Shown in pieces: positions 1-12,569 of a DNA stretch of 12,569 bases. The notes beneath the pieces are model-generated. The model was not told where the DNA came from, searched no databases, and saw nothing but the letters and a program-made list of their open reading frames with translations. Origin of the DNA: a virus; the IMG/VR virus record IMGVR_UViG_3300020216_000004; one strand, 5' to 3'. Position numbers and translations under genes: made by a program. Position 1 is the stretch's first letter. Each line of letters starts with the position of its first letter.

Positions 1-576
1 CCCCTATTGTAAATTGTCAGACAATTCCCCATAACACATTAGAATATGATGAGTCAATAGATATGAGAGTAATATTAGTCAACACTAATTAAAATATAAT
101 AATAGAAAGATATGCAGTGGAAATGTATATAGAATAACTCAACAATAATAACAACTATAAATAATAAACTAGAATACTATAACACCAGTTAATTAGATAA
201 CTACTAGAAACACGATAACAACAGGTATGATAGAATACTATAAATAATAATATATAAATTAAATAAACTAAATTAAATAATAATAAATAATAACTATTAT
301 AAGATATCTGATAATTGAATATATACGAATAAATAAACTATATGAATTAGAGATAATAGTAATTAGGAATAATAATAATAGAAATGAATTAGAAGTGTAT
401 AGGAGGTGTTTGAATAGACAAGGTGAAGACTTACCTATCAAAGGTATTGAAACACTCACAACAAGCTTATATAGACTGTGAGATGTAGTATGTGATATAG
501 GTGTATGTAGATATAATAAAAGAAGTTATCTATAGAATTAACTATAAATAACCTCTTGTAATTTTGTATGGTTTAT
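1..576. repeat. Left inverted terminal repeat (ITR), 576 bp
   Basis: I reverse-complemented 1..576 in 60-nt blocks against 11994..12569 and found no mismatch. Identity ends at 577 (t) versus 11993 (c). The repeat starts at window base 1, so this looks like a true genome terminus. Confidence 0.95.
12..26. promoter_or_regulatory. Terminal palindrome AATTGTC-A-GACAATT, a candidate origin or protein-binding site (mirror copy at 12544..12558)
   Basis: Perfect 7-bp arms around a single central base. It is bracketed by CCCC at 1..4 and 27..30, and ATTGT is directly repeated at 6..10 and 13..17. It lies 11 nt from the genome end, where protein-primed replication origins are located. Confidence 0.4.
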
Positions 577-3500
577 TTAATTACTACTCCACTAGCAAGT
601 AACTGTTCTATGATATCTTTTTCATCTTCTGAAGCTGATATATCTAAGAATACATCAGATACTTCTACATAACCGTCTACTTCATGTAGGGTTACATAGT
701 CATTGGATTGCTTACCAAAGTCTGAGTTAGATTCATAAGGTATGTTTCTAATAACCTCAATGAATGGAGTTTCTAACTCGTTATGAATGTATCTACCAAT
801 CTCAGTTATTAGTGTATCTTTAGAAGACCTCATGAATGGTATCTCATGTGTTAATGGTATATCAGTTCTTGATACTAGCTTATTGCCTATCTTGCTACTG
901 TACACATTAAGGGTAGCTGTAGCATTGTATAGGTCTAACGATAGGGTAAGCTTGATATCTTGGTTAATAACATAGTCAGGGTCTATATAGATAGGCTGTT
1001 CATTGTATGGTACATGAATGTTAGTCTCAGTCTCCATATAGTCATAAACGTTGTGGTGCTCCTCTTCAACACGAATAGTTCCTAGGTCGAATAGAACCTT
1101 GTTATCTAACATGTAGTTAGCTTCTGCGTTCGATGTCCTTTGACCTATATTGATAGGTACTACTGCGTTACTAATCATCTCTTCAGGTAACTTAACAGGT
1201 AATGAATATAGGTTGTAGAAATAGTCTCCATAGTCTACTGTCTCACCGTTTACCAGGTCACCAAATCTATCTACACTTAAGGTGTTCAGTATAGACTGGT
1301 TAACAGGGTAGATATTAACGAAATTAGATACAAAACCGTCATAGGTCTTTTCTGAAGCTACTGCTGTAACTATAATCAGGGTAGTACCTGTGAATCGGTC
1401 TTCCCAGTACTCACCAATATTAAGAGTAAATACTGTCTTGTCTTCGTTAAAGTTAGGGTCTTCATCAGGGTATAAGTTAATTAAGTCAGGTGAATTATTA
1501 TCAAAGGTTCTAATGTCTAACTCAATACCTTCGTTGAATACAAAGCCATTATCAGCTGTAATTACAATAGTGTCCTCCTGGTTAACACCTCTACCTTCTG
1601 GAATGTTAGAGCTAGCGTTAACTAATTCTGACCCGAATCTGGCTCTAGGATAGCCTGCTATAGCTTCTACATGAATAGACTCTACTGTATCGGTAACTAA
1701 GGTGCTGAAGTCTAAACTTAATACTGTACCCTCTTCATTAAACTCTCCAGGTACTTCATGGAGCTTGTAGGAGACTTCTGAGCCATCTCCAAGGGTAACG
1801 GTAACCTCATGTAACTCAAAGCCTTCTAAAGCTTCATAATTGACTACAGTGAAGTTTGATACCGTATCGCTCTCGATACTTGATACTACGTTCTCTAATT
1901 CTTCGGTATACCCTACCTCAATTAACTCAGCTGTTGTAACCTGAATCTCTAAGGTAGTTAAGCCTGGTTCAAAGTATTCAGCAGGAATGATTTCAATTAC
2001 AGATTTACCTTCTACATCAGTTAAGTTTACTGTTTCATCATCACCGATTAAGGTAACTGAGTTCAGTATATAACCTTCATCAGAAGTAACTGTAATAGCT
2101 TGGTCTGGTTCTACCTCGATACCCTCTACATCTGTACTAGCGTTCTCTAACTCTTCATAGTACCGAATAGGGAAAGACTCTACAATCTCTTCCTGAGTGA
2201 TTACTGATATAGCAATGGTTAGATGGTCACCGTCTTCGAAATAGTCACCCCACTCGAATTTAACGTTACCATTCTGACCATATACTGGTAAGCTTACTGT
2301 CTCATAGGTATCTGGTGTACCAGGTGAACCTCCGAAACCGTTCCGTGGTGGCTCTCCATCAGTTCTCATGATTAACTCGATAGACTCGAAAGCGTGCGTG
2401 CTATAGGTCAGAACATCTACTGTATCGTTCTCATAGAGTCGTGTTACCCCATAGTAAGGGTAGTTCTCCCAAAACCCGCTTGAGTCTCCATTTACAGGCA
2501 TATCCCAGGTTACAGATTTAGGTGGCTTGTCACCTCTTACCTCTATAGCTGTGACTGGTTCTACTAATACCTCTTCGTCTATAACTTCCCTAGATACCTC
2601 TATACCGTCTTCATAGGTAATTAGAATTGTTAGGTTAGCTAATCCATCTGAACCCTCTATGTATTCTGTATCACCAATTAGAATCGTATCGTCATAGACT
2701 ACCTCTTCATCGTGAGGAATAACCTCTTCTACTGTGATAGTTTCTGTGGTAACTTCAGGCTCATAGTTAGGGTCTGCATAGGTGTATACCAACGTATCGA
2801 AACCTTGAAGCTCTCCAGGGTTAGGATAACCTCTACCTGGTGCATAGGTAAATTCTGTTTGCTCATATACGTTGTCGTCATCGTTAGGTATCTCAGCGTC
2901 CTGTACATCTAGTAACCAACCATCGTTAACTGTCCAAACATCTACTGAAATTGTGTCGAACGTATAACCAGGGTTAGCTCTAATTGTGATTGGTTGAGCC
3001 CATTGGTAAGTATCAGGTTCTACTGTATATGTATCATCATTCCCCTGCTTACTGATTGGTACAGGGTCATACGTTGGTTCTAACGTACCTATTACCTGGA
3101 TAGCATTAACAGGTTCTAACACTACCTCATACCCTATAACTTCCCTAGATACTTCTACACCGTCTTCTAAGGTAATCTCATAGGTAATACTCATGATACC
3201 CTCAGTACCCTCTATAAGCTCTTCCTCACCTACAGGCATAGTATCGTCTTCTACGGTATCTGTTTCATACTCTATTGGTTCTTCTATCGTCTCTTCTTCT
3301 ACAGTTATTACAGGTTCAGTCTGTACAGGTGTTACATAGATGTCAATAATCGTTAAGTCCGGGTAATAAGTAGTGTTACCATCTCGTAACTCATGTACGA
3401 TATAAGAGTTTGTAGGCTCGAAATATACTGTGTTAGCTTCTCTATCTACTTGGATATATTGAGGATATTCTGCGTCTGTGTATTTACCTCTAGCGTTGGT

Positions 3501-3752
3501 AATGTACCCTGAACCTAAGTCTTCTTCTACCTCTACTCTATCAATCGTGTAATCTTGACTAACGGTTAATATGTAATCATGGTGCCAATTAAAGCTTGTA
3601 GAAACCGATTGTGTATTCTCAACATTTACAACGATATCGTCTACATCTGTAGAGCCATCAGTATTAAACACGTTAAACTCTACATATTTGTCTGTACTCG
3701 TTGCTATGGGTCTAGTAGACTCTTTTTCACCGAATCTAAATGCAAGTGCCAT
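573..3752 (-). CDS. Large modular tail protein (1059 aa): repeated beta-rich modules plus two G5 domains, fused to a phi29 gp9-like tail-knob C-terminal domain
   Basis: Start is preceded by AGGAGGTTAAATA-ATG, with the SD embedded in the last codons of the upstream ORF. The C-terminal ~255 aa (about nt 576..1346) end in ...GYVEVSDVFLDISASEDEKDIIEQLLASGVVIK, resembling the phi29 gp9 C-terminus ...[33 protein letters not shown] (recalled). It is the last gene of the structural block. Its TAA stop (573..575) lies just inside the ITR. Confidence 0.8.
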   Translation of the reverse strand: MALAFRFGEKESTRPIATSTDKYVEFNVFNTDGSTDVDDIVVNVENTQSVSTSFNWHHDYILTVSQDYTIDRVEVEEDLGSGYITNARGKYTDAEYPQYIQVDREANTVYFEPTNSYIVHELRDGNTTYYPDLTIIDIYVTPVQTEPVITVEEETIEEPIEYETDTVEDDTMPVGEEELIEGTEGIMSITYEITLEDGVEVSREVIGYEVVLEPVNAIQVIGTLEPTYDPVPISKQGNDDTYTVEPDTYQWAQPITIRANPGYTFDTISVDVWTVNDGWLLDVQDAEIPNDDDNVYEQTEFTYAPGRGYPNPGELQGFDTLVYTYADPNYEPEVTTETITVEEVIPHDEEVVYDDTILIGDTEYIEGSDGLANLTILITYEDGIEVSREVIDEEVLVEPVTAIEVRGDKPPKSVTWDMPVNGDSSGFWENYPYYGVTRLYENDTVDVLTYSTHAFESIELIMRTDGEPPRNGFGGSPGTPDTYETVSLPVYGQNGNVKFEWGDYFEDGDHLTIAISVITQEEIVESFPIRYYEELENASTDVEGIEVEPDQAITVTSDEGYILNSVTLIGDDETVNLTDVEGKSVIEIIPAEYFEPGLTTLEIQVTTAELIEVGYTEELENVVSSIESDTVSNFTVVNYEALEGFELHEVTVTLGDGSEVSYKLHEVPGEFNEEGTVLSLDFSTLVTDTVESIHVEAIAGYPRARFGSELVNASSNIPEGRGVNQEDTIVITADNGFVFNEGIELDIRTFDNNSPDLINLYPDEDPNFNEDKTVFTLNIGEYWEDRFTGTTLIIVTAVASEKTYDGFVSNFVNIYPVNQSILNTLSVDRFGDLVNGETVDYGDYFYNLYSLPVKLPEEMISNAVVPINIGQRTSNAEANYMLDNKVLFDLGTIRVEEEHHNVYDYMETETNIHVPYNEQPIYIDPDYVINQDIKLTLSLDLYNATATLNVYSSKIGNKLVSRTDIPLTHEIPFMRSSKDTLITEIGRYIHNELETPFIEVIRNIPYESNSDFGKQSNDYVTLHEVDGYVEVSDVFLDISASEDEKDIIEQLLASGVVIK
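2529..2741 (-). other. G5 domain 2 within the tail protein (aa ~338-408)
   Basis: TITVEEVIPHDEEVVYDDTILIGDTEYIEGSDGLANLTILITYEDGIEVSREVIDEEVLVEPVTAIEVRGD is a paralogue of domain 1. The DNA also matches: 2581..2621 versus 3136..3176 agree at 37 of 41 nt (ATAACTTCCCTAGATAC...). Confidence 0.75.
3084..3311 (-). other. G5 domain 1 within the tail protein (aa ~148-223)
   Basis: VITVEEETIEEPIEYETDTVEDDTMPVGEEELIEGTEGIMSITYEITLEDGVEVSREVIGYEVVLEPVNAIQVIGT fits the G5 pattern: I-x-[FY]-x-T-x(3)-D-x(2)-[LM]-x(2)-G, then EG-x-x-G, Y-E-[IV]-T, DG-x-E-V-x-R-E-V, P-V-x-x-I-x-V-x-G-T. Confidence 0.75.
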
Positions 3753-4187: not shown

Positions 4188-4208
4188 GTGGTGTTACCCT
4201 CCTTAGTT

Positions 4209-4245
4209 ATAAAAAAATAGAGGTAGAGTTCCCCAACTCCACCCC
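4209..4245 (-). terminator. Rho-independent terminator downstream of the major capsid gene
   Basis: Minus-strand RNA reads GGGGUGGAGUU-GGGG-AACUCUACCUC, an 11-bp stem with two G-U pairs and a GGGG loop. It is followed directly by UAUUUUUUUAU. Confidence 0.7.
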
Positions 4246-4283
4246 TACAGGTAATAAAGCATGGCATTGCTTTATTGATTCTT

Positions 4284-5444
4284 TTAAGCTACAAGGAACA
4301 CAAGGAAGTTTTCATTTAAGTCATTGAAGTATCCTGCGTCCATCTTGTAATAGTTCGTGAAGAACTCGGCTTTAGCATTATAGTTTGAAGTAACTCGTCG
4401 GTCTAAGTTAGCAACTCCTACCGCTTGGCTATCAAACATAACTCCTAAGATTCCGGAAGCTTCTATTTCTGTATTTTTAGTAGCTACGTTAATTTTAGAT
4501 ACTGATTCAAAGTCATATGTATCTCCTGAACCTTGCCAGTATGGTACTGTTTCGTAATTAGGTAGCTGAACCATTTCACTATTATATGTATCTGATTGTA
4601 AGAATGTTTTAGTAGCACTTGCAAAGTCAGATAATAGAACAATAGTAACTTCTGATTCTGGTGTAAATTTCTCTTTCCCACCAACGTTAAATAATGTAGA
4701 AATCTTACTCATACGGTCTTTATATAGGTTAACTAAGTATGAAGCAAAACGAATAAATTCAGGGTCTCTATAGCTTTCATCTGGTGTTAGAGCTTCACCT
4801 GATTTTTCGTTGTATAATGCAAGTAAGTTAATTGCTTTAACTCCTGTTTGAGTTAAATCTAAAGTACCTTCAGCATTGGTTAAGTCATCTGATAATGTTT
4901 CAGCAGTCATATTGTTGATTGCTCTCATTACCAATCCATCTAGTTTAATAGTCATAGATTTCTCTACACCATTGAAAATCATAGTTAAGAATCCATTTAA
5001 TTGTTCTGCGTTTGAGAATGATTCTTTAACTTGTAATTCAGTAAATGAAATTGGTACTTCAAATGTTACCTTAGAGTTAAAGAACTTAGCTGATACCTTA
5101 GGTTGATAGAACACATCTTGGATATAACGCTGTCCATCCTCTAGAGCCCAAGACTCGTTCTCGTGTGCTTCAGGAATATCAGAAGAAATCTTTTCTAAGA
5201 TAGAACCATATTCCCAACCGTCCATAATTACACTAGGAACGTTACCTGAATAAACTCTATCATCAAAGATTACCTTACCAATATGGTTAACTAGTTTCTT
5301 TACATAGTTATCAATGTTATCTGAATCAATGATTTCATTACCAACATCTACAATGTTAGATAAGTCTTCTTGTACAACGTCTTCACGTCCTAAGACTTGT
5401 TCTGTAGCTGTATTCATAATGTCATGTATTTGCGTTACTCTCAT
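4284..5444 (-). CDS. Major capsid protein (386 aa), phi29 gp8-like HK97 fold
   Basis: The N-terminal region ...NIDNYVKKLVNHIGKVIFDDRVY... parallels recalled gp8 ...[22 protein letters not shown].... Its size and position in the structural block fit, and it is flanked by its own extended -10 element and a terminator, as expected for the most abundant virion protein. Confidence 0.8.
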   Translation of the reverse strand: MRVTQIHDIMNTATEQVLGREDVVQEDLSNIVDVGNEIIDSDNIDNYVKKLVNHIGKVIFDDRVYSGNVPSVIMDGWEYGSILEKISSDIPEAHENESWALEDGQRYIQDVFYQPKVSAKFFNSKVTFEVPISFTELQVKESFSNAEQLNGFLTMIFNGVEKSMTIKLDGLVMRAINNMTAETLSDDLTNAEGTLDLTQTGVKAINLLALYNEKSGEALTPDESYRDPEFIRFASYLVNLYKDRMSKISTLFNVGGKEKFTPESEVTIVLLSDFASATKTFLQSDTYNSEMVQLPNYETVPYWQGSGDTYDFESVSKINVATKNTEIEASGILGVMFDSQAVGVANLDRRVTSNYNAKAEFFTNYYKMDAGYFNDLNENFLVFLVA

Positions 5445-5475: not shown

Positions 5476-6096
5476 TTAATATACCAACGTACCAACCGTT
5501 TGACTTACATCTTGGAATATATTTTCTACTAAAACTTTGTTATTTAGATATCTAACTGCTTTCTCTCGGTCGTCGATAGCGTTGGAAGTATTTCCCTTAG
5601 TTTCAGAAGTCCTTGTTTCATTACCGCTTGTTATCTCTGAGTTGTCTCCAGTATTAGTACTACTTTGAGTGTTCTCGTCAGAGTCAGCAAAGTCTTCTGA
5701 GTTGTACCCTGCAACTGAATTAGTTTGCTTGTCATTACTAGTGTTAGAGTAGTCAGTAATGTTACTACTATCTGACTCAGTTTTTTCAGTTGTGGTTAGG
5801 TTATATGTCTCTAGTGGTATCTCAGCCTTATAAACTTCTGCAAGCTTATTCCATTTGTCAGCGTACATACCATATAACATACTAGCTATTAATTTTAAGT
5901 CTTCCTCTTTAACATTCTCTTTCTCTCCAATTAAGTTATTAACTAGGGGAGAAACCTTCCTGCTACCGTGTTGACTCACGAATAGCAGGTCAGTAGTTGA
6001 GATGTCTTGGAAGTCATTTAGGAGTTCTATATCACCAATCTCATTGAGATAGTGAAACAGACCTTTACCTTCTTTGTATAAGTCTCTTATATTCAT
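5476..6096 (-). CDS. 206-aa structural protein of uncertain role (lower-collar/adaptor or scaffold candidate)
   Basis: A clean ORF between the portal and capsid genes. It has an N-terminal helical-looking ~100 aa, a central ~70-aa S/T/N/D/E-rich low-complexity tract (TTEKTESDSSNITDYSNTSNDKQTNS...TSGNETRTSETKGNTSN), and a short conserved-looking C-terminus. Its position after the portal matches gp11, and its position before the capsid matches gp7. Confidence 0.6.
   Translation of the reverse strand: MNIRDLYKEGKGLFHYLNEIGDIELLNDFQDISTTDLLFVSQHGSRKVSPLVNNLIGEKENVKEEDLKLIASMLYGMYADKWNKLAEVYKAEIPLETYNLTTTEKTESDSSNITDYSNTSNDKQTNSVAGYNSEDFADSDENTQSSTNTGDNSEITSGNETRTSETKGNTSNAIDDREKAVRYLNNKVLVENIFQDVSQTVGTLVY
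5478..5486 (-). promoter_or_regulatory. Extended -10 element TGGTATATT upstream of the capsid gene
   Basis: The minus strand reads TTGGTATATTAA and overlaps the last codons and stop of the 206-aa ORF. The capsid SD (AAGGGG) and ATG lie about 20-35 nt downstream. It is one of four TGnTATATT copies, all at gene junctions. Confidence 0.5.
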
Positions 6097-6178: not shown

Positions 6179-7525
6179 TTACTCTACTTCTACTTCTTCC
6201 TTGTCTTCTTCTTCCTCTTCTTCAGGTTCTTCTAGAATCTCTTCTAAGTCTTCTACTAAGTCCTCTTTGTCTTCCTCTTCAACTGGTTCATCAGTCTCTA
6301 AGGTTTCCTCTAAGTCCTCTTCAAAGTCTTCTACATCCTCTTTAAGCTCTACATCCTCAATATCTACAGTATCTTGTTCAGGTAACTCTTCTACTTCCTG
6401 CTCAGGTAGTTCTTCAGAAGTATCTTGAATAGGTAAGTCCTCTACTTCTTGTTCAGGTAGTTCTGAGTCGTATTCTAGGTCTAATATAACCTCTTCAGTT
6501 TCTTCTACAGGGTTAACTTCATCTTGCTCCTCAAACTCTTCAGAAGCCTCATAATCACCTTTTAAGAAACTGTCAGAAATCTCTCTAGCTTCATCTATAC
6601 TGATACCTTCATTACCTTCTTCGTTAAGCGTGTTAACCTCGTCTTGGTTCTCTCTATAGTCAGTCCATGAAGAGCTTAGCTTAACTGTAATGTTTTGGTC
6701 GAACATCTCGTTAACCTCTTCTATAGCTTCCTTACGATGGGATAACATATCATCAATTAGAGGGTATAAGCTTTCACTATTTACCTGTACTTCATCAGTA
6801 ATTAAACGCTCTTTCTTCATGTTGTTATTAGCATTTAAACCAATCTCGTTGTACATAGTAGCTTTAAGGTACTGTTGAAACTCTACAAGGTCACTAATAT
6901 TAGTTTTAGAACCTTCACCAACTGCGTTTGATTTCAAACTATCGAATAGCTTATTCTCAAAGATATATCCTAAGTTACCCTTTTCAATGTTATCTAAGTA
7001 CTCTTTAGCTGACTCAGCTGTATTATCATCAGCAACCGAAATCATGTTATTGATACGGTTATTGAATGTAGTTAACATCATAGTAATCTCATTTTCATTC
7101 ATGAAAGTACCATACTTAGAGTAGATAGGAACTAACCCCATAAGCATATAGTCATTTTTCATAAGTACTATGTCTTCACCAATTTTAAGGTTACCATTGT
7201 AGTTAAGGTAAGGGTTTGAGACTGTAAATAAAGTTGGTTTTCCATATACGTTAGGCTCTCCACCTAGTCCACCATAGAAGGCATATAGTTCTCCTTCTAC
7301 CTTAGTTAACCCCGCGTAACCGTTTGTCTGTAGCAGGCGTTCTAACTCTTTAGCAGGTAGTGAATCGGGTAACCCTTCATACTCAAACATCTGTAAAGAC
7401 CTGTTAAGCATGTAGTTTACATGGTTTCTTACGTTGATTTGCTTATCATCATACTGGTACTTAATACCTTTAATACCATTGTATAAGCCCCAATCATATC
7501 GCTCATTGTATTTGCTTTTACTCAT
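6179..7525 (-). CDS. Portal / upper collar connector (448 aa), phi29 gp10-like core plus a polyacidic C-terminal extension
   Basis: LQMFEYEGLPDSLP parallels recalled gp10 YQLFEWENLPPTINP, and NMKKERLITDEV parallels LEKKERMVTDEV. The start is AAGGAGCGTATAT-ATG, overlapping the ATPase stop. The homologous core ends near aa 285, and aa 291-448 are about half Asp/Glu. Confidence 0.9.
   Translation of the reverse strand: MSKSKYNERYDWGLYNGIKGIKYQYDDKQINVRNHVNYMLNRSLQMFEYEGLPDSLPAKELERLLQTNGYAGLTKVEGELYAFYGGLGGEPNVYGKPTLFTVSNPYLNYNGNLKIGEDIVLMKNDYMLMGLVPIYSKYGTFMNENEITMMLTTFNNRINNMISVADDNTAESAKEYLDNIEKGNLGYIFENKLFDSLKSNAVGEGSKTNISDLVEFQQYLKATMYNEIGLNANNNMKKERLITDEVQVNSESLYPLIDDMLSHRKEAIEEVNEMFDQNITVKLSSSWTDYRENQDEVNTLNEEGNEGISIDEAREISDSFLKGDYEASEEFEEQDEVNPVEETEEVILDLEYDSELPEQEVEDLPIQDTSEELPEQEVEELPEQDTVDIEDVELKEDVEDFEEDLEETLETDEPVEEEDKEDLVEDLEEILEEPEEEEEEDKEEVEVE
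6365..6466 (-). repeat. Tandem 2 x 51-nt (17-aa) repeat inside the acidic portal tail
   Basis: SELPEQEVEDLPIQDTS is followed by EELPEQEVEELPEQDTV (aa 354-387). On the plus strand, 6388..6413 and 6439..6464 match at 23 of 26 nt. Confidence 0.85.
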
Positions 7526-7536
7526 ATATACGCTCC

Positions 7537-8667
7537 TTATAGTTGTTTACTAACGTTTAAGTAGTTATTAACTGAATCTCCTACATCATTATCTTGATAG
7601 AACACTTTATCAGTATCAAAGAAATACTTAATGTTTTTACCTAGCTTGTTAACTGGTTTATGAATACTTCTTTGATAGTTGAACTTGTGACTGAACTCTA
7701 AGCTGTAAATGATGTCTTCGTCTTCATCCTTGATTGGTGTTGTCTTATCATGAATGAATGTAAACATCTCATTATCTACCTCTATGATTTCACATTGATA
7801 AATGAATCCATCAAACTTAATAAAGTAGGTTAGTAAGATATCTTTAGCTTTATATTTAACTGGTAAGTGAGGGTAGATATCTAATTCCCATGCACCATCT
7901 GTAATCATGTTTAACTTAGGGTTATCAAAGGCAAAGTAGAAGTTATTCTTTTTATTTTTTGATGTTGATTGTGCATACTCTACTGCTACCTTTAAGTTAG
8001 AATCCCCATATGTGTAGAGGTCTATAGTTCCCTGGTCTTGCTTATGGATATGCTTAAGCCCCATCTCGTTAAAGTAAGGGCTGTACTTATTAACCGTGTT
8101 ACCTAGCATGAATATCGTTACATCTTTACGTTGGCGTATAATCGTACTCAACGTATTCATGAAGAGTACAAACTCATCCTTTAAGTACATACCTCTGGTT
8201 AAGAACTCATCAAAGAGTATTGTCTTAATATTAGGGTAAGAGAATGATTTGTTATGTTCTGTATCTGACAAAGCAAACACATAGGCAAAGATATCACTAT
8301 CGCTGTATACCGCTCTACCTTCATCATCGTAGTTACAGAAGTAGAATCTACCTGAGTAATAGGTAATACCTTCAAACTTACCATCACTAATCTTATAGAT
8401 TTCATCGTTGGCAATTAGGGCACTAAAGATTTCACTAGCTCTTTTACCCTTAATGTCTTCTTGCCACCGTCTAAGGAGGGCTAACTGCCCGCCATTTTCA
8501 AAGTATACCTCTATAGCATGCTTCAGTACTGCGTATGTCTTACCATTGGAACGTTCCCCGAATATAACGTTATAAACTGCTTTTTTAGATAGAATAGCGT
8601 TCAGGTTATAGTAGCTATCCTGTTTATTTTTAGGTTTGTCTTTTTTGCTTGTATCTGTTTGTACCAT
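7537..8667 (-). CDS. DNA encapsidation ATPase, phi29 gp16-like (376 aa from the preferred start)
   Basis: Walker A is GERSNGKT (8536..8559). Walker B YPNIKTILFDEFL matches recalled gp16 YPNVSTIVFDEFI, and NKYSPYF matches VVNPYF. I prefer the ATG at 8665..8667 (GGAGGTTATCAG-ATG) over the ORF-track ATG at 8709. The 8709 start has no SD and lies upstream of the TGCTATATT element at 8690..8698. Confidence 0.9.
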   Translation of the reverse strand: MVQTDTSKKDKPKNKQDSYYNLNAILSKKAVYNVIFGERSNGKTYAVLKHAIEVYFENGGQLALLRRWQEDIKGKRASEIFSALIANDEIYKISDGKFEGITYYSGRFYFCNYDDEGRAVYSDSDIFAYVFALSDTEHNKSFSYPNIKTILFDEFLTRGMYLKDEFVLFMNTLSTIIRQRKDVTIFMLGNTVNKYSPYFNEMGLKHIHKQDQGTIDLYTYGDSNLKVAVEYAQSTSKNKKNNFYFAFDNPKLNMITDGAWELDIYPHLPVKYKAKDILLTYFIKFDGFIYQCEIIEVDNEMFTFIHDKTTPIKDEDEDIIYSLEFSHKFNYQRSIHKPVNKLGKNIKYFFDTDKVFYQDNDVGDSVNNYLNVSKQL

Positions 8668-8689
8668 CTGATAACCTCCATCACTATAT

Positions 8690-8698
8690 AATATAGCA
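8690..8698 (-). promoter_or_regulatory. Extended -10 element TGCTATATT upstream of the ATPase gene
   Basis: The minus strand reads CAGGTGCTATATTATATAGTGATGGAGG, between the polymerase stop (8724) and the ATPase SD (8675..8679). Confidence 0.5.
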
Positions 8699-8723
8699 CC
8701 TGAGTTCATCTAATCTGCTTAGA

Positions 8724-11735: not shown

Positions 11736-11745
11736 GTTAATCCTC

Positions 11746-11868
11746 CTATTTAATAGTTTCCCAGTATTCCATCAATTCTACATAAGCAAGTAATCCACCT
11801 GCTGTAAACTTCGCATTACTACGCTCACATAACTTCTTGTAGTCGAATATCATCTGTACGTTAACCAT
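11746..11868 (-). CDS. Small 40-aa ORF, first gene of the early unit (absent from the supplied ORF track)
   Basis: I translated it by hand as MVNVQMIFDYKKLCERSNAKFTAGGLLAYVELMEYWETIK. The start is AAGGAGGTATTGA-ATG. Its TAG stop abuts the SD of the HTH gene. No family was recognised. Confidence 0.45.
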   Translation of the reverse strand: MVNVQMIFDYKKLCERSNAKFTAGGLLAYVELMEYWETIK

Positions 11869-11901
11869 TCAATACCTCCTTGTCTATGACCTCTTATACC
11901 T

Positions 11902-11930
11902 AATATAGCATAACTACTCTAGTAATCTAA
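11902..11930 (-). promoter_or_regulatory. Candidate early promoter: TTAGAT, 17-nt spacer, (TGC)TATATT
   Basis: The minus strand reads TTCTTAGATTACTAGAGTAGTTATGCTATATTAGG, about 27 nt upstream of the SD of the first ORF. A consensus TTGACA also lies further upstream (11951..11956) but has no good -10 partner. Confidence 0.5.
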
Positions 11931-11993
11931 GAATAGGATAATTATTCTAATGTCAATAGAACACTGCGTACAGATATACAATTACAGTATACC

Positions 11994-12569
11994 ATAAACC
12001 ATACAAAATTACAAGAGGTTATTTATAGTTAATTCTATAGATAACTTCTTTTATTATATCTACATACACCTATATCACATACTACATCTCACAGTCTATA
12101 TAAGCTTGTTGTGAGTGTTTCAATACCTTTGATAGGTAAGTCTTCACCTTGTCTATTCAAACACCTCCTATACACTTCTAATTCATTTCTATTATTATTA
12201 TTCCTAATTACTATTATCTCTAATTCATATAGTTTATTTATTCGTATATATTCAATTATCAGATATCTTATAATAGTTATTATTTATTATTATTTAATTT
12301 AGTTTATTTAATTTATATATTATTATTTATAGTATTCTATCATACCTGTTGTTATCGTGTTTCTAGTAGTTATCTAATTAACTGGTGTTATAGTATTCTA
12401 GTTTATTATTTATAGTTGTTATTATTGTTGAGTTATTCTATATACATTTCCACTGCATATCTTTCTATTATTATATTTTAATTAGTGTTGACTAATATTA
12501 CTCTCATATCTATTGACTCATCATATTCTAATGTGTTATGGGGAATTGTCTGACAATTTACAATAGGGG
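11994..12569. repeat. Right inverted terminal repeat (ITR), 576 bp
   Basis: Exact reverse complement of 1..576 and ends at the last base of the window. The identical 63-aa ORF reported at 268..459(-) and 12111..12302(+) is a by-product of this repeat. Confidence 0.95.
12095..12123 (-). promoter_or_regulatory. Weak inward-facing promoter candidate inside the ITR: TTGAAA, 17-nt spacer, TATAGA (mirror copy 447..475 on the plus strand)
   Basis: Sequence match only. At the right end it would read toward the early genes. At the left end the mirror copy would read antisense into the 3' end of the tail gene. Confidence 0.25.

Follow-up and report, generated by a model that had tools for sequence, protein, structure and literature searches.

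A hyper-acidic C-terminal tail on the portal protein of a minimal phi29-like phage belongs to a trait of its whole portal lineage

The portal protein encoded by the phage genome analyzed here (the window, the full 12,569-nucleotide stretch of IMG/VR record IMGVR_UViG_3300020216_000004) is a phi29-type connector of 448 residues. It very probably ends in a genuine, translated C-terminal extension, in which a short helical stalk (residues 285 to 321), which prolongs the crown of the connector, is followed by about 125 predicted disordered, polyanionic residues, and such an extension is a trait of the whole, largely uncultured portal lineage, comprising the Astrithrvirus-like phages and related phi29-like podoviruses of 10 to 13 kb. 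We tentatively read the tail, at somewhat less than even chances, as a portal-anchored polyanionic brush, that is, as a covalently tethered analogue of an acidic core located next to the portal. The phi29-type connector is a well-known protein; the acidic tails occur lineage-wide, and their role is undescribed in the literature that we searched. Capsid assembly nucleates at the portal, which is also the conduit through which DNA enters and exits, and phi29-like phages are the main model of the packaging motor. Here, a very abundant, minimal phi29-like lineage, represented by thousands of metagenomic sequences and by isolates known on Salmonella, Acinetobacter, Vibrio, and Pectobacterium, appears to place a long polyanion where that conduit opens into the capsid.

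The identity of the protein as a portal, which the first-pass annotation had claimed from the letters of the DNA, is borne out by profile, sequence, and structure comparisons. The protein matches PF05352 with 76.8 bits (cutoff, 25.6) over residues 31 to 284 and the PHROG profile phrog_2038 with an E value of 6e-37, and phmmer aligns its residues 33 to 288 with residues 25 to 285 of phi29 gp10 (PDB 1h5w; E value, 9e-19). The top Foldseek match of the portal model, whose core has the connector fold of wing, stem, and clip domains, is likewise the phi29 connector 1h5w (E value, 4e-16; target TM score, 0.73), and other top matches are the portals of GA1, phiCPV4, P68, and Andhra. Homology to phi29 gp10 (PF05352; PDB 1h5w, 1fou, and 6qyj) is therefore clear in both sequence and fold across residues ~30 to 288, and the end points of the Pfam and phmmer alignments (residues 284 and 288) agree with the earlier estimate that the likeness stops near residue 285. 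In the AF2 model, built on an 81-sequence alignment, pLDDT is mostly above 90 over residues 21 to 290, and W287 is invariant in the 81 portal homologues. The core (residues 1 to 290) has a net charge of -13. As a separate observation, the core contains an in-frame ATG at Met274 with GAGGT 7 nt upstream, which may mark a nested gene; Met274 is not conserved, and the consensus residue at this position is Lys.

The genomic setting is that of a protein-primed, phi29-like podovirus. The genome, of 9 to 10 genes, is complete at 12.6 kb, has 576-bp inverted terminal repeats (ITRs), and contains only 9 open reading frames (ORFs) of at least 50 aa, tiled on one strand. It has in common with phi29 a gp16-type ATPase, a protein-primed family B DNA polymerase (DNA_pol_B_2), and a phi29-type capsid protein (Phi29_MCP), and a search with Rfam detected no pRNA in the window. 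With the Astrithrvirus-like phages it shares the gene order ATPase, portal, short lower collar, capsid protein, and split tail knob, and the core of its portal is 40 to 48% identical to those of the isolates (Salmonella phage astrithr gp06, Acinetobacter phage Phanie gp6, Vibrio phage K58 g2, and Pectobacterium DU_PP_III). These isolates infect Gram-negative bacteria, whereas the tail protein of the window phage carries G5 domains, which hint at a Gram-positive host; a scan of genome contigs hit nothing but MAG bins whose taxonomy was mixed, and hence gave no reliable host. Coordinates of the portal gene, its parts, and its neighbors are collected in Table 1.

Table 1. Positions of the portal gene, its subregions, and adjacent genes in the window
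Feature	Coordinates	Strand	Basis
Major capsid protein, phi29-type, net charge -28	4284..5444	-	PF25622, E value 1e-51
206-aa gene between portal and capsid genes, probable short lower collar (tail tube) protein	5476..6096	-	Homology
Portal (upper collar/connector) gene, 448 codons plus stop	6179..7525	-	ORF list; stop codon at 6179-6181
C-terminal 17 residues, EEPEEEEEEDKEEVEVE	6182..6232	-	Translation
Hyper-acidic, predicted intrinsically disordered region, residues 322-448	6182..6562	-	AF2, charge composition
Tandem duplication, 51 bp x 1.9 = 2 x 17 aa (ELPEQEVE...)	6368..6464	-	TRF
Proximal tail, residues 285-321, two modelled helices	6563..6673	-	AF2 secondary structure
Conserved phi29-type connector core, residues 1-284	6674..7525	-	Pfam match, AF2 pLDDT, invariant W287
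gp16-type packaging ATPase, immediately upstream of portal gene	7537..8709	-	PF05894, E value 5e-20; phrog_2150

The gene that separates the portal from the capsid protein bears on what else this genome may encode for assembly. Its 206-aa product is homologous to astrithr gp07, Phanie gp7, and K58g2 gp4, with which it has the motifs VS(A/G)(F/Y)NS(D/E) and a C-terminal D-V...(I/V)Y in common, and a short lower collar has been assigned to Astrithrvirus-like phages in a review, in a statement based on HHpred (PMC11476376). Our own comparison with phi29 gp11 by hhalign was not significant (E value, 0.12), and the AF2 model is of low confidence (mean pLDDT, 51.6); neither phmmer and profile searches against PDB sequences nor a Foldseek search with this low-confidence model returned a match. 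Because our profile and structure searches gave nothing, the assignment depends on the homologues in astrithr and Phanie and on the review, and we regard the gene as probably encoding the short lower collar and not a scaffold.

Positions 6182 to 6655 correspond exactly to portal residues 291 to 448. This stretch contains 78 acidic residues (58 Glu and 20 Asp) and 6 Lys/Arg, just as had been counted by hand beforehand, and so has a net charge of -72; 49% of its residues are Asp or Glu, charged residues make up a fraction of 0.53, and the net charge amounts to -0.46 per residue. Measured against the remaining proteome of the phage (16.7% Asp/Glu and 9.9% Lys/Arg), the acidic excess has a binomial probability of 3e-21 and the basic deficit one of 0.004. 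A dodecamer would carry 12 x 72 = 864 net negative charges, close to the ~850 proposed earlier. The tandem repeat of two 17-residue units described in the first-pass annotation was recovered by TRF (84% matches; score, 145), and its copies, ELPEQEVEDLPIQDTSE and ELPEQEVEELPEQDTVD, are identical at 13 of 17 positions. A period-3/15 low-complexity array, also found by TRF (positions 6183 to 6223), underlies the poly-Glu end, where the translation reads ...EEPEEEEEEDKEEVEVE, as had been stated. Glu and Asp in the tail use mixed codons, as they do in other genes, which speaks against a simple triplet expansion as the origin of the tail; Lys is avoided, with only 4 codons compared with the 58 for Glu, although AAR codons abound in the rest of this genome of 36% GC.

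Two parts of the tail can be distinguished in the AF2 model. The proximal part contains helices at residues 285 to 304 and 310 to 321 (pLDDT of about 65 to 77), the first of which matches residues 286 to 301 of phi29 gp10 in position, and it is semiconserved in close homologues, with the motif WDYRxNQGE. From about residue 322 to the end, pLDDT is below 50 and no secondary structure is predicted, in a model of the monomer that leaves room for folding upon oligomerization. The tail searched by itself against Pfam and the PHROGs, a check akin to the BLASTp or HHpred search that had been suggested for residues 286 to 448, matched no family at E values up to 10.

Purine-rich, low-complexity DNA of this kind is error prone in sequencing, and the JGI scaffolds that bear the window phage are chimeric, which raises the question of whether the tail arose through a missed stop codon, a frameshift near codon 290, or misassembly. 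We consider the chance of such an artifact to be negligible. The same 448-aa product is obtained from two independent sources, JGI and Logan; the acidic tail is open and in the same frame in all homologues, with length differences that are all in frame; and the scaffold joins fall in the ITRs, at a distance from the portal gene. In the JGI scaffolds, the window phage and its relative of 70% identity lie beside bacterial genes. Integration was rejected as the explanation, and we regard these arrangements as scaffolding artifacts because each junction contains an 'n' and sits inside an ITR.

Whether the tail is unusual, as the first-pass annotation held, depends on the company in which it is viewed. 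The description is apt only in relation to the Salasmaviridae, in which the phi29 tail has 24 residues and a net charge of -3, compared with ~160 residues and -72 in the window; within its own clade, acidic tails are universal. When portals of the lineage were clustered at 50% identity, all 150 representatives had a tail, of 20 to 339 aa (a 17-fold span; median, 85 aa) and with net charges of -2 to -136. It comprised at least 30 aa in 143 of them and at least 100 aa in 61, so that the survey of portal lengths suggested earlier finds long acidic tails to be widespread. By net charge, the window tail ranks 7th of the 150. Among the 120 closest homologues (60 to 70% core identity), the tails range from 92 to 215 aa and consist of 34 to 52% Asp/Glu, and a net-negative tail is present in each of the ~80 retrieved loci in which the portal ORF is complete. 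Cultivated members have such tails as well, namely, astrithr (portal of 425 aa), Phanie (361 aa), and Vibrio K58 g2 (358 aa). The acidic, low-complexity character of the C terminus is common to these Astrithrvirus-like isolates and the window portal; the isolates' tails have net charges of -17 to -30 and are richer in Asn, Gln, Gly, and Ser, and the window tail is among the most acidic. The earlier claim was to fall if acidic tails turned out to be both common and already characterized in close homologues. Common they are; in the literature searched, we found no paper that characterizes them and no discussion of the function of Astrithrvirus-like portal tails.

Length is far from uniform, even at short evolutionary distances. 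Close relatives with 54 to 61% core identity have tails of just 21 to 30 aa, and since these phages manage with so few residues, a long tail appears to be dispensable. Furthermore, the 17-fold range implies that any function of the tail must tolerate large changes in dose. The tail evolves approximately 4 times faster than the core, by in-frame indels and independent repeat expansions: portal pairs with 93 to 99% core identity have only 53 to 82% tail identity and differ by indels, and the repeats vary by lineage (PEPEPE, TEETDD, DEAPA, EQESGT, and DGPE). In 25 related IMG/VR portals, dN/dS was 0.07 for the core and 0.27 for the distal tail, with Asp-Glu exchange in either direction as the most common replacement; these values come from a sub-lineage other than that of the window and are based on a low-complexity alignment and nonindependent pairs. 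They indicate that the distal tail is subject to purifying selection in this related lineage, as judged from substitution patterns. Given an unconserved sequence that is nevertheless under purifying selection, with changes that are mostly Asp-Glu swaps, it is the charge that is selected and not the sequence.

These same features can be given a nonadaptive explanation, which we think rather unlikely. Replication slippage might keep lengthening a terminus that is free inside the capsid while selection did nothing other than remove basic or sticky residues, leaving acidic ones behind. The spread of tail lengths, with big differences among close relatives, would fit such a process, as would the existence of relatives with short tails and the tandem repeats that arose independently in many lineages, the 51-bp duplication of the window among them. 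However, the tails are costly in what are the smallest tailed-phage genomes (10 to 13 kb), where ~250 nt goes into the median tail and ~470 nt, a 3.8% share of the total, into that of the window. Complete loss of the acidic tail was seen in 0 of the 150 representatives, and in the large group of portals of 375 or 376 aa, the tail is constant at 95 aa. The distal-tail dN/dS and the prevalence of Asp-Glu exchange also argue against unselected growth. If the tail were nonetheless mostly tolerated junk, it would offer a clean natural case of composition-only selection acting on a disordered region that is confined beside DNA.

The C terminus of phi29 gp10 is flexible and comes out at the inner opening of the channel (PMC6542822). 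The earlier statement that connector C termini point into the capsid is supported by the phi29 structures, and by analogy the window tail would sit inside the capsid. We suggest that the 12 tails leave the rim of the portal channel's inner mouth and together would form a self-repelling, swollen brush of ~860 negative charges, which would act by bulk negative charge and would need no specific fold or motif. In the empty procapsid, this brush would fill the space above the portal; in the filled head, it may prevent the packaged DNA from adhering to the crown or jamming it, and may keep the genome end centered in the channel. Its position would be that at which other phi29-like phages have many copies of a small acidic protein, namely, gp7 in phi29 and gp20 and gp22 in Andhra and P68, respectively. 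The brush, DNA-exclusion, and core-analogue roles are what we infer from charge and likely location.

The comparison with these proteins is instructive in both directions. The phi29 protein gp7 binds to the connector; in Andhra, gp20 is present in 72 copies per capsid, with only residues 42 to 64 ordered, atop the portal (PMC9710869). Like the tail, gp7 (98 aa; net charge, -10), Andhra gp20 (107 aa; net charge, -24), and P68 gp22, the latter two from staphylococcal picoviruses, are acidic; they are small, are mostly disordered except for one helix, and lie on or are bound to the inner face of the portal, the place in the particle that the window tail would also occupy. Unlike the tail, which is covalently attached and present in 12 copies, they are separate gene products with ~72 to 180 copies, and the distal 125 residues in the window are predicted to lack even the helix of these core and scaffold proteins. 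With composition correction, the tail has no similarity to the portal-proximal core protein (phrog_34730), and it matches no PHROG. The analogy is one of charge and position only, because BLASTP matches of the tail to gp7, to Andhra gp20, and to free acidic ORFs in two relatives (L007 and L012) vanish with composition correction and were rejected as homology. In these two relatives, a free-standing acidic protein (110 and 113 aa; net charges, -34 and -33) is encoded directly after a shorter-tailed portal gene, which suggests that portal-adjacent acidic material can also be supplied in trans. A different kind of extension is found in P22 and Sf6, whose portals have a C-terminal helical barrel that follows the channel axis into the capsid interior and is thought to organize the DNA. 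The P22 barrel, of roughly 120 residues, is an ordered coiled-coil tube, whereas in the monomer AF2 model of the window portal only ~37 residues of the tail are helical and the distal 125 are disordered.

The tail may instead be a built-in scaffold or nucleation domain that recruits the capsid protein and ensures exactly one portal per isometric shell, an option raised in the first-pass annotation to which we give a minor share of the probability. That no separate scaffold gene is evident holds up: phi29 has its own scaffold, gp7, and this positive control matches the scaffold profiles with an E value of 2e-51, whereas not one of the 9 ORFs of this complete genome matches the phi29 scaffold families (PF11418 and phrog_10439). 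For phages of this type, a review lists the capsid, collar, knob, polymerase, terminal protein, and SSB, with the scaffold absent (PMC11476376). In phi29, assembly is nucleated by the connector, which gp7 binds and links to the capsid (PMC5529062; PMC9710869), and the free acidic ORFs that adjoin the portal in L007 and L012 would also suit a scaffold. On the other hand, relatives with tails of 21 to 30 aa have no acidic ORF between the portal and capsid genes, a region occupied by a lysozyme gene and holin-like genes. A tail would provide 12 copies per capsid, compared with about 110 to 180 of gp7 in phi29 (PMC6542822); residues ~323 to 448 are predicted to be unstructured, whereas scaffolds are helical; and similarity to gp7 or Andhra gp20 is absent after composition correction. 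The capsid protein is itself net negative (-28), so that simple electrostatic recruitment of its subunits is not obvious, and the phi29 capsid protein can make isometric T=3 shells without a scaffold (PMC11476376). Of these points, the short-tailed relatives, the lack of predicted helices in the distal tail, and the absent similarity to gp7 weaken the option. Helical ORFs of 163 to 173 aa beside the portal in five other relatives (L020, L024, L035, L038, and L039) were considered as scaffolds, but no convincing family match was found for them; they co-occur with tails of 49 to 122 aa, which indicates no clear trade-off.

A combined version, to which we would likewise assign a low probability, is that scaffold and inner core functions have been fused onto the portal. 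The tail would then act as a cis chaperone that nucleates a T=3 shell around one portal and is kept as a DNA-excluding core, and L007 and L012 would represent the split state. Should the tail be functional, whether as the brush that we favor or otherwise, it would bear on how a tailed phage of ~10 genes assembles without a recognizable scaffold and on how jamming of the DNA at the portal is avoided. Such a function would be relevant, too, to the engineering of phi29-type connectors as nanopores or as anchors for capsid display, in that the C terminus evidently tolerates more than 300 extra residues.

Two further roles put forward in the first-pass annotation fared less well. In one, the tails modulate packaging density or pressure, as filler or extra polyanion that tunes pressure or termination to a short genome. 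Packaging termination in phi29 has been proposed to depend on pressure on the connector (PMC6542822), and the tails would adjoin the DNA, if their location is as in phi29. However, the Spearman coefficients of tail length and charge with genome or contig span were -0.005 and 0.02 (n = 44), and among 27 loci with ITRs the coefficient was 0.19. By our calculation, twelve tails (864 charges; ~210 kDa) would be equivalent to ~0.3 to 0.45 kb of DNA, a share of only about 3% of the genome, also in terms of charge. We therefore dropped the idea of filler or pressure compensation, for want of a correlation with genome length, and regard it as very unlikely.

Least probable of the proposed functions, in our estimation scarcely credible, is release of the tail by cleavage and its delivery to the host, where it would serve as a DNA mimic or anti-restriction module. 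Polyanionic character is the sole point in its favor. Ocr and ArdA, which are known DNA mimics, are folded and bear patterned charges, with carboxylates on the surface that imitate the phosphate pattern of B-DNA, whereas the tail is predicted to be disordered and has no Pfam or PHROG family match. No protease gene was found in the genome by inspection of the ORF list or with Pfam or PHROG profiles, and the tail is tethered to a protein that remains with the capsid outside the cell. The sequence of the tail, moreover, is unconstrained among relatives.

The C-terminal extension of the 448-aa portal protein is both real and extraordinarily acidic. Residues 291 to 448 (the tail) contain 78 Asp/Glu and only 6 Lys/Arg, for a net charge of -72, compared with -13 for the 290-residue core. 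The counts and position reported in the first-pass annotation proved exact. Its other descriptive claims also hold: homology to gp10 (the phi29 connector) stops at about residues 285 to 288, near the residue 285 originally proposed, and the 2 x 17-aa tandem repeat corresponds to a 51-bp duplication (1.9 copies, 84% DNA matches) in which 13 of 17 encoded residues are identical. Against the rest of the phage proteome (16.7% D/E and 9.9% K/R), the binomial probability of the D/E excess is 3e-21 and that of the K/R deficit is 0.004. Glu and Asp codons are mixed, in proportions seen in other genes of the phage, so the tail is not a pure triplet expansion; it has 4 Lys codons to 58 Glu codons, although AAR codons are frequent in the rest of this AT-rich genome. 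The identical portal is recorded from two sources and its reading frame is open in every homologue, which for practical purposes excludes a frameshift, which the annotation had named as one way to refute its observation; an artefact has essentially no support and is barely conceivable. An in-frame ATG at Met274, with GAGGT 7 nt upstream, could yield a 175-aa product (the last strand plus the tail), but this Met is not conserved among homologues and the start signal is therefore probably due to chance. A 75-aa poly-Ser ORF on the plus strand is not a gene; it results from reading the GAA/GAG-rich tail sequence in antisense.

The tail had been thought unusual for a connector of this type. Instead, it is a trait of the whole lineage and is not peculiar to this phage. 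When 1.84 billion cluster representatives were searched exhaustively with HMMER, 639 proteins matched at E below 1e-30, and among the best 150 of these all tails were net negative (-2 to -136), with lengths running continuously from 20 to 339 aa (median, 85 aa; at least 100 aa in 61 of 150). The window phage is among the more extreme cases, ranking seventh by tail charge in that set. The 120 best homologues (60 to 70% core identity) are 369 to 498 aa long, with tails of 92 to 215 aa and 34 to 52% D/E. Isolates have acidic tails as well, on portals of 425 aa in astrithr, 361 aa in Phanie and 358 aa in K58 g2 (the last tail containing a (PE)n run), whereas the gp10 tail is only 24 residues long, with a net charge of -3. 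The annotation had allowed that such tails might prove common and already characterised; they are common, but we found no characterisation of them. A 2024 review of phi29-like phages (PMC11476376) does not use the word "acidic" and leaves portal length without comment, and none of the other literature searched treats such tails. Long, polyanionic, disordered tails on phi29-type connectors are so far undescribed, yet common in this lineage. As a separate observation, 13 of the 150 tails contain an alternating hydrophobic/polar heptad with the pattern of an amphipathic beta-strand (VEVNVEV or IDITIDI, for example), compared with 3.2 +/- 1.65 in shuffled tails, mostly 60 to 80% of the way along (portal cluster representatives P0138, P0147, P0183, P0194, P0198, P0261 and others; also P0002, P0017 and P0081). 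The window tail lacks it, save for a vestigial ...EEVEVE at its end.

In an AF2 model built with an 81-sequence alignment, the core superposes on the phi29, GA1 and phiCPV4 connectors (Foldseek best E 4e-16, TM 0.73). The tail begins with helices at residues 285 to 304 and 310 to 321 (pLDDT, ~65 to 77), beyond which the chain has no secondary structure to the C terminus (pLDDT, <50). The first helix matches gp10 residues 286 to 301 by position; given this correspondence and the phi29 structures (Xu et al.), the tail would exit at the inner mouth of the DNA channel, directed into the capsid. Charged residues make up a fraction of 0.53 of the tail, which has a net charge of -0.46 per residue. 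In the polymer physics of disordered proteins, a chain of such charge is a strong polyelectrolyte, and on this basis the tail should be a swollen coil.

Portal pairs with 93 to 99% core identity share only 53 to 82% identity in the tail, with indel differences, and the internal repeats vary by lineage (TEETDD, DEAPA, EQESGT, DGPE, PE), so slippage expansion has occurred many times. The variable length of the tails would suit a mostly non-adaptive expansion filtered for acidity. We consider this unlikely, however, as the tail is universally retained in the smallest tailed-phage genomes, and purifying selection on the tail fits poorly with such a process: pooled dN/dS over 25 related IMG/VR portals was 0.27 in the distal tail, against 0.07 in the core (values from non-independent pairs in a low-complexity alignment of a sub-lineage other than that of the window). 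D<->E was the commonest replacement in these portals. Judging from such comparisons, the tail is not free to drift, and is most simply explained by selection that favours net negative charge and disfavours basic residues, with order and length little constrained. We hold this description of the tail (that it exists, is disordered, occurs across the lineage and is selected for charge) with high confidence.

Other phi29-like phages have a small acidic, mostly disordered protein in many copies at the inner face of the portal (PMC9710869). The phi29 scaffold, gp7 (98 aa, net -10), attaches to the connector and links it to the capsid; the portal-proximal core proteins Andhra gp20 and P68 gp22 (107 aa, net -24, 72 copies per capsid) are kept in the virion, where only a 23-residue helix atop the portal is ordered (PMC9710869; charges computed here). 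Judging from the phi29 structures, the tail of this portal must occupy the same place. This shared location leads us to favour, tentatively, a portal-anchored polyanionic brush that would be a tethered counterpart of the portal-proximal core. Through its charge, the brush would hold DNA away from the connector crown and keep the genome end central; in the procapsid, it would possibly also fill the portal and orient it. The interpretation offered in the annotation is supported in part. A pressure filler is very improbable, given that tail length shows no correlation with genome length (Spearman ~0, n = 44) and that the tails amount to only ~3% of the genome's charge; a DNA mimic released by cleavage has essentially no support and is more improbable still.

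A strict cis-scaffold, with the tail standing in for a separate protein, draws on the lack of a scaffold gene in the window. No window ORF matched the phi29 scaffold families (the gp7 positive control did), and the tightly tiled coding strand has no room for another gene of that size; the earlier remark that none is evident stands as absence of evidence. Nevertheless, we doubt this explanation: there are just 12 tail copies per capsid, predicted helices are lacking, the capsid protein is itself net acidic, and short-tailed relatives exist. In the last of these (relative loci L013, L016-L018 and L021; 54 to 61% core identity), tails of only 21 to 30 residues are still acidic, and lysis genes, with no acidic ORF, lie behind the portal. 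The usual order in ~80 loci with a complete portal ORF is portal, lower-collar-like gene, capsid gene; astrithr gp07 and Phanie gp7, which the review counts as short lower collars (PMC11476376), are homologues of the window's 206-aa protein. Our own comparisons of this protein gave an hhalign E of 0.12 against phi29 gp11, no match to PDB sequences in a profile search, an AF2 model with a mean pLDDT of 51.6 and no Foldseek match. In several loci, the slot behind the portal holds an unidentifiable 163- to 173-aa helical ORF. In L007 (a Staphylococcus xylosus assembly) and L012, portals with tails of 95 to 116 aa are directly followed by a separate acidic protein (110/113 aa, net -34/-33), which could represent either a split form of the tail module or a small protein of scaffold or core type. 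It opens with MNIRDL, the same six residues that begin the window's 206-aa protein.

Coordinates of features in the window and, where a locus is named, in relatives
Feature	Coordinates	Strand	Description
Inverted terminal repeats	1-576, 11994-12569		perfect, 576 bp
Region within pRNA search	11736-12010	-	
Unannotated ORF	11746-11868	-	40 aa, MVNVQMIFDYKKLCERSNAKF...
Gene 1		-	88-aa protein
Gene 2		-	189-aa protein, probable terminal protein
Gene 3		-	protein-primed family-B DNA polymerase
Gene 4		-	gp16-type packaging ATPase
Gene 5	6179-7525	-	portal, 448 aa
Portal Met274 codon	6704-6706	-	
Portal tail	6182-6655	-	exactly residues 291-448
Tandem duplication	6368-6464	-	
Poly-Ser ORF (rejected)	6201-6428	+	75 aa
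Gene 6		-	206-aa protein
Gene 7		-	phi29-type major capsid protein
Hairpin	4217-4248	-	14 pairs, then T-run
Rfam "cow-rumen-4" match	4194-4248		sub-threshold
Gene 8		-	143-aa protein
Gene 9	573-3752	-	1059-aa protein, two G5 domains (Pfam E 3e-29)
Free acidic protein	L007:5759-6091, L012:5927-6268		helical N terminus, then hyper-acidic disordered region
Lysis genes compared	L008:11388-11603 (holin), L018:2015-3202, L001:9644-10099		
Scaffold junctions	L004:5455, L006:5440, L006:16411		

At 12,569 bp, the window spans the complete linear genome of a protein-primed phage, with all substantial ORFs on one strand; with its terminal repeats and only nine ORFs of at least 50 aa, its gene set is among the most minimal of tailed phages. 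The nearest isolates are Astrithrvirus-like phages of 10 to 12 kb (Salmonella astrithr/assan/Astrid, Enterobacter Entb_47, Acinetobacter Phanie, Pectobacterium DU_PP_III and Vibrio K58 g2), to which portal core identity is 40 to 48%, against 29% to phi29. These isolates have Gram-negative hosts, whereas the G5 domains of the 1059-aa tail protein suggest a Gram-positive one. That protein is itself extremely acidic (net -167; 20% D/E, 4.4% K/R). No holin or endolysin is recognisable among the window genes; of the relatives, L008 has a holin, L018 and L021 have a lysozyme together with membrane proteins resembling holins, and astrithr and Phanie have an endolysin. Two explanations present themselves: the 1059-aa protein conceals a function in lysis or cell-wall entry, or the phage relies on a helper, a dependence reported for Phanie (PMC11476376). 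Despite the gp16-type ATPase, the window gave no Rfam match to pRNA, and folding of its left-end non-coding region is not unusual (z = -1.24); any packaging RNA is either too diverged for detection or absent. Two JGI scaffolds (sample 3300009048) fuse this phage or its 70%-identity relative to bacterial genes, but each junction is marked by a single "n" lying 73 to 78 bp inside the repeat (319 bp at one junction), and we reject prophage integration in favour of scaffolding artefacts. A strong terminator-like hairpin just after the capsid gene, with which the sub-threshold Rfam match coincides, probably attenuates transcription between the capsid and tail genes. Finally, the unannotated 40-aa ORF upstream of the 88-aa gene has a strong AAGGAGG ribosome-binding site, and L006 has a 33-aa ORF at the matching position.
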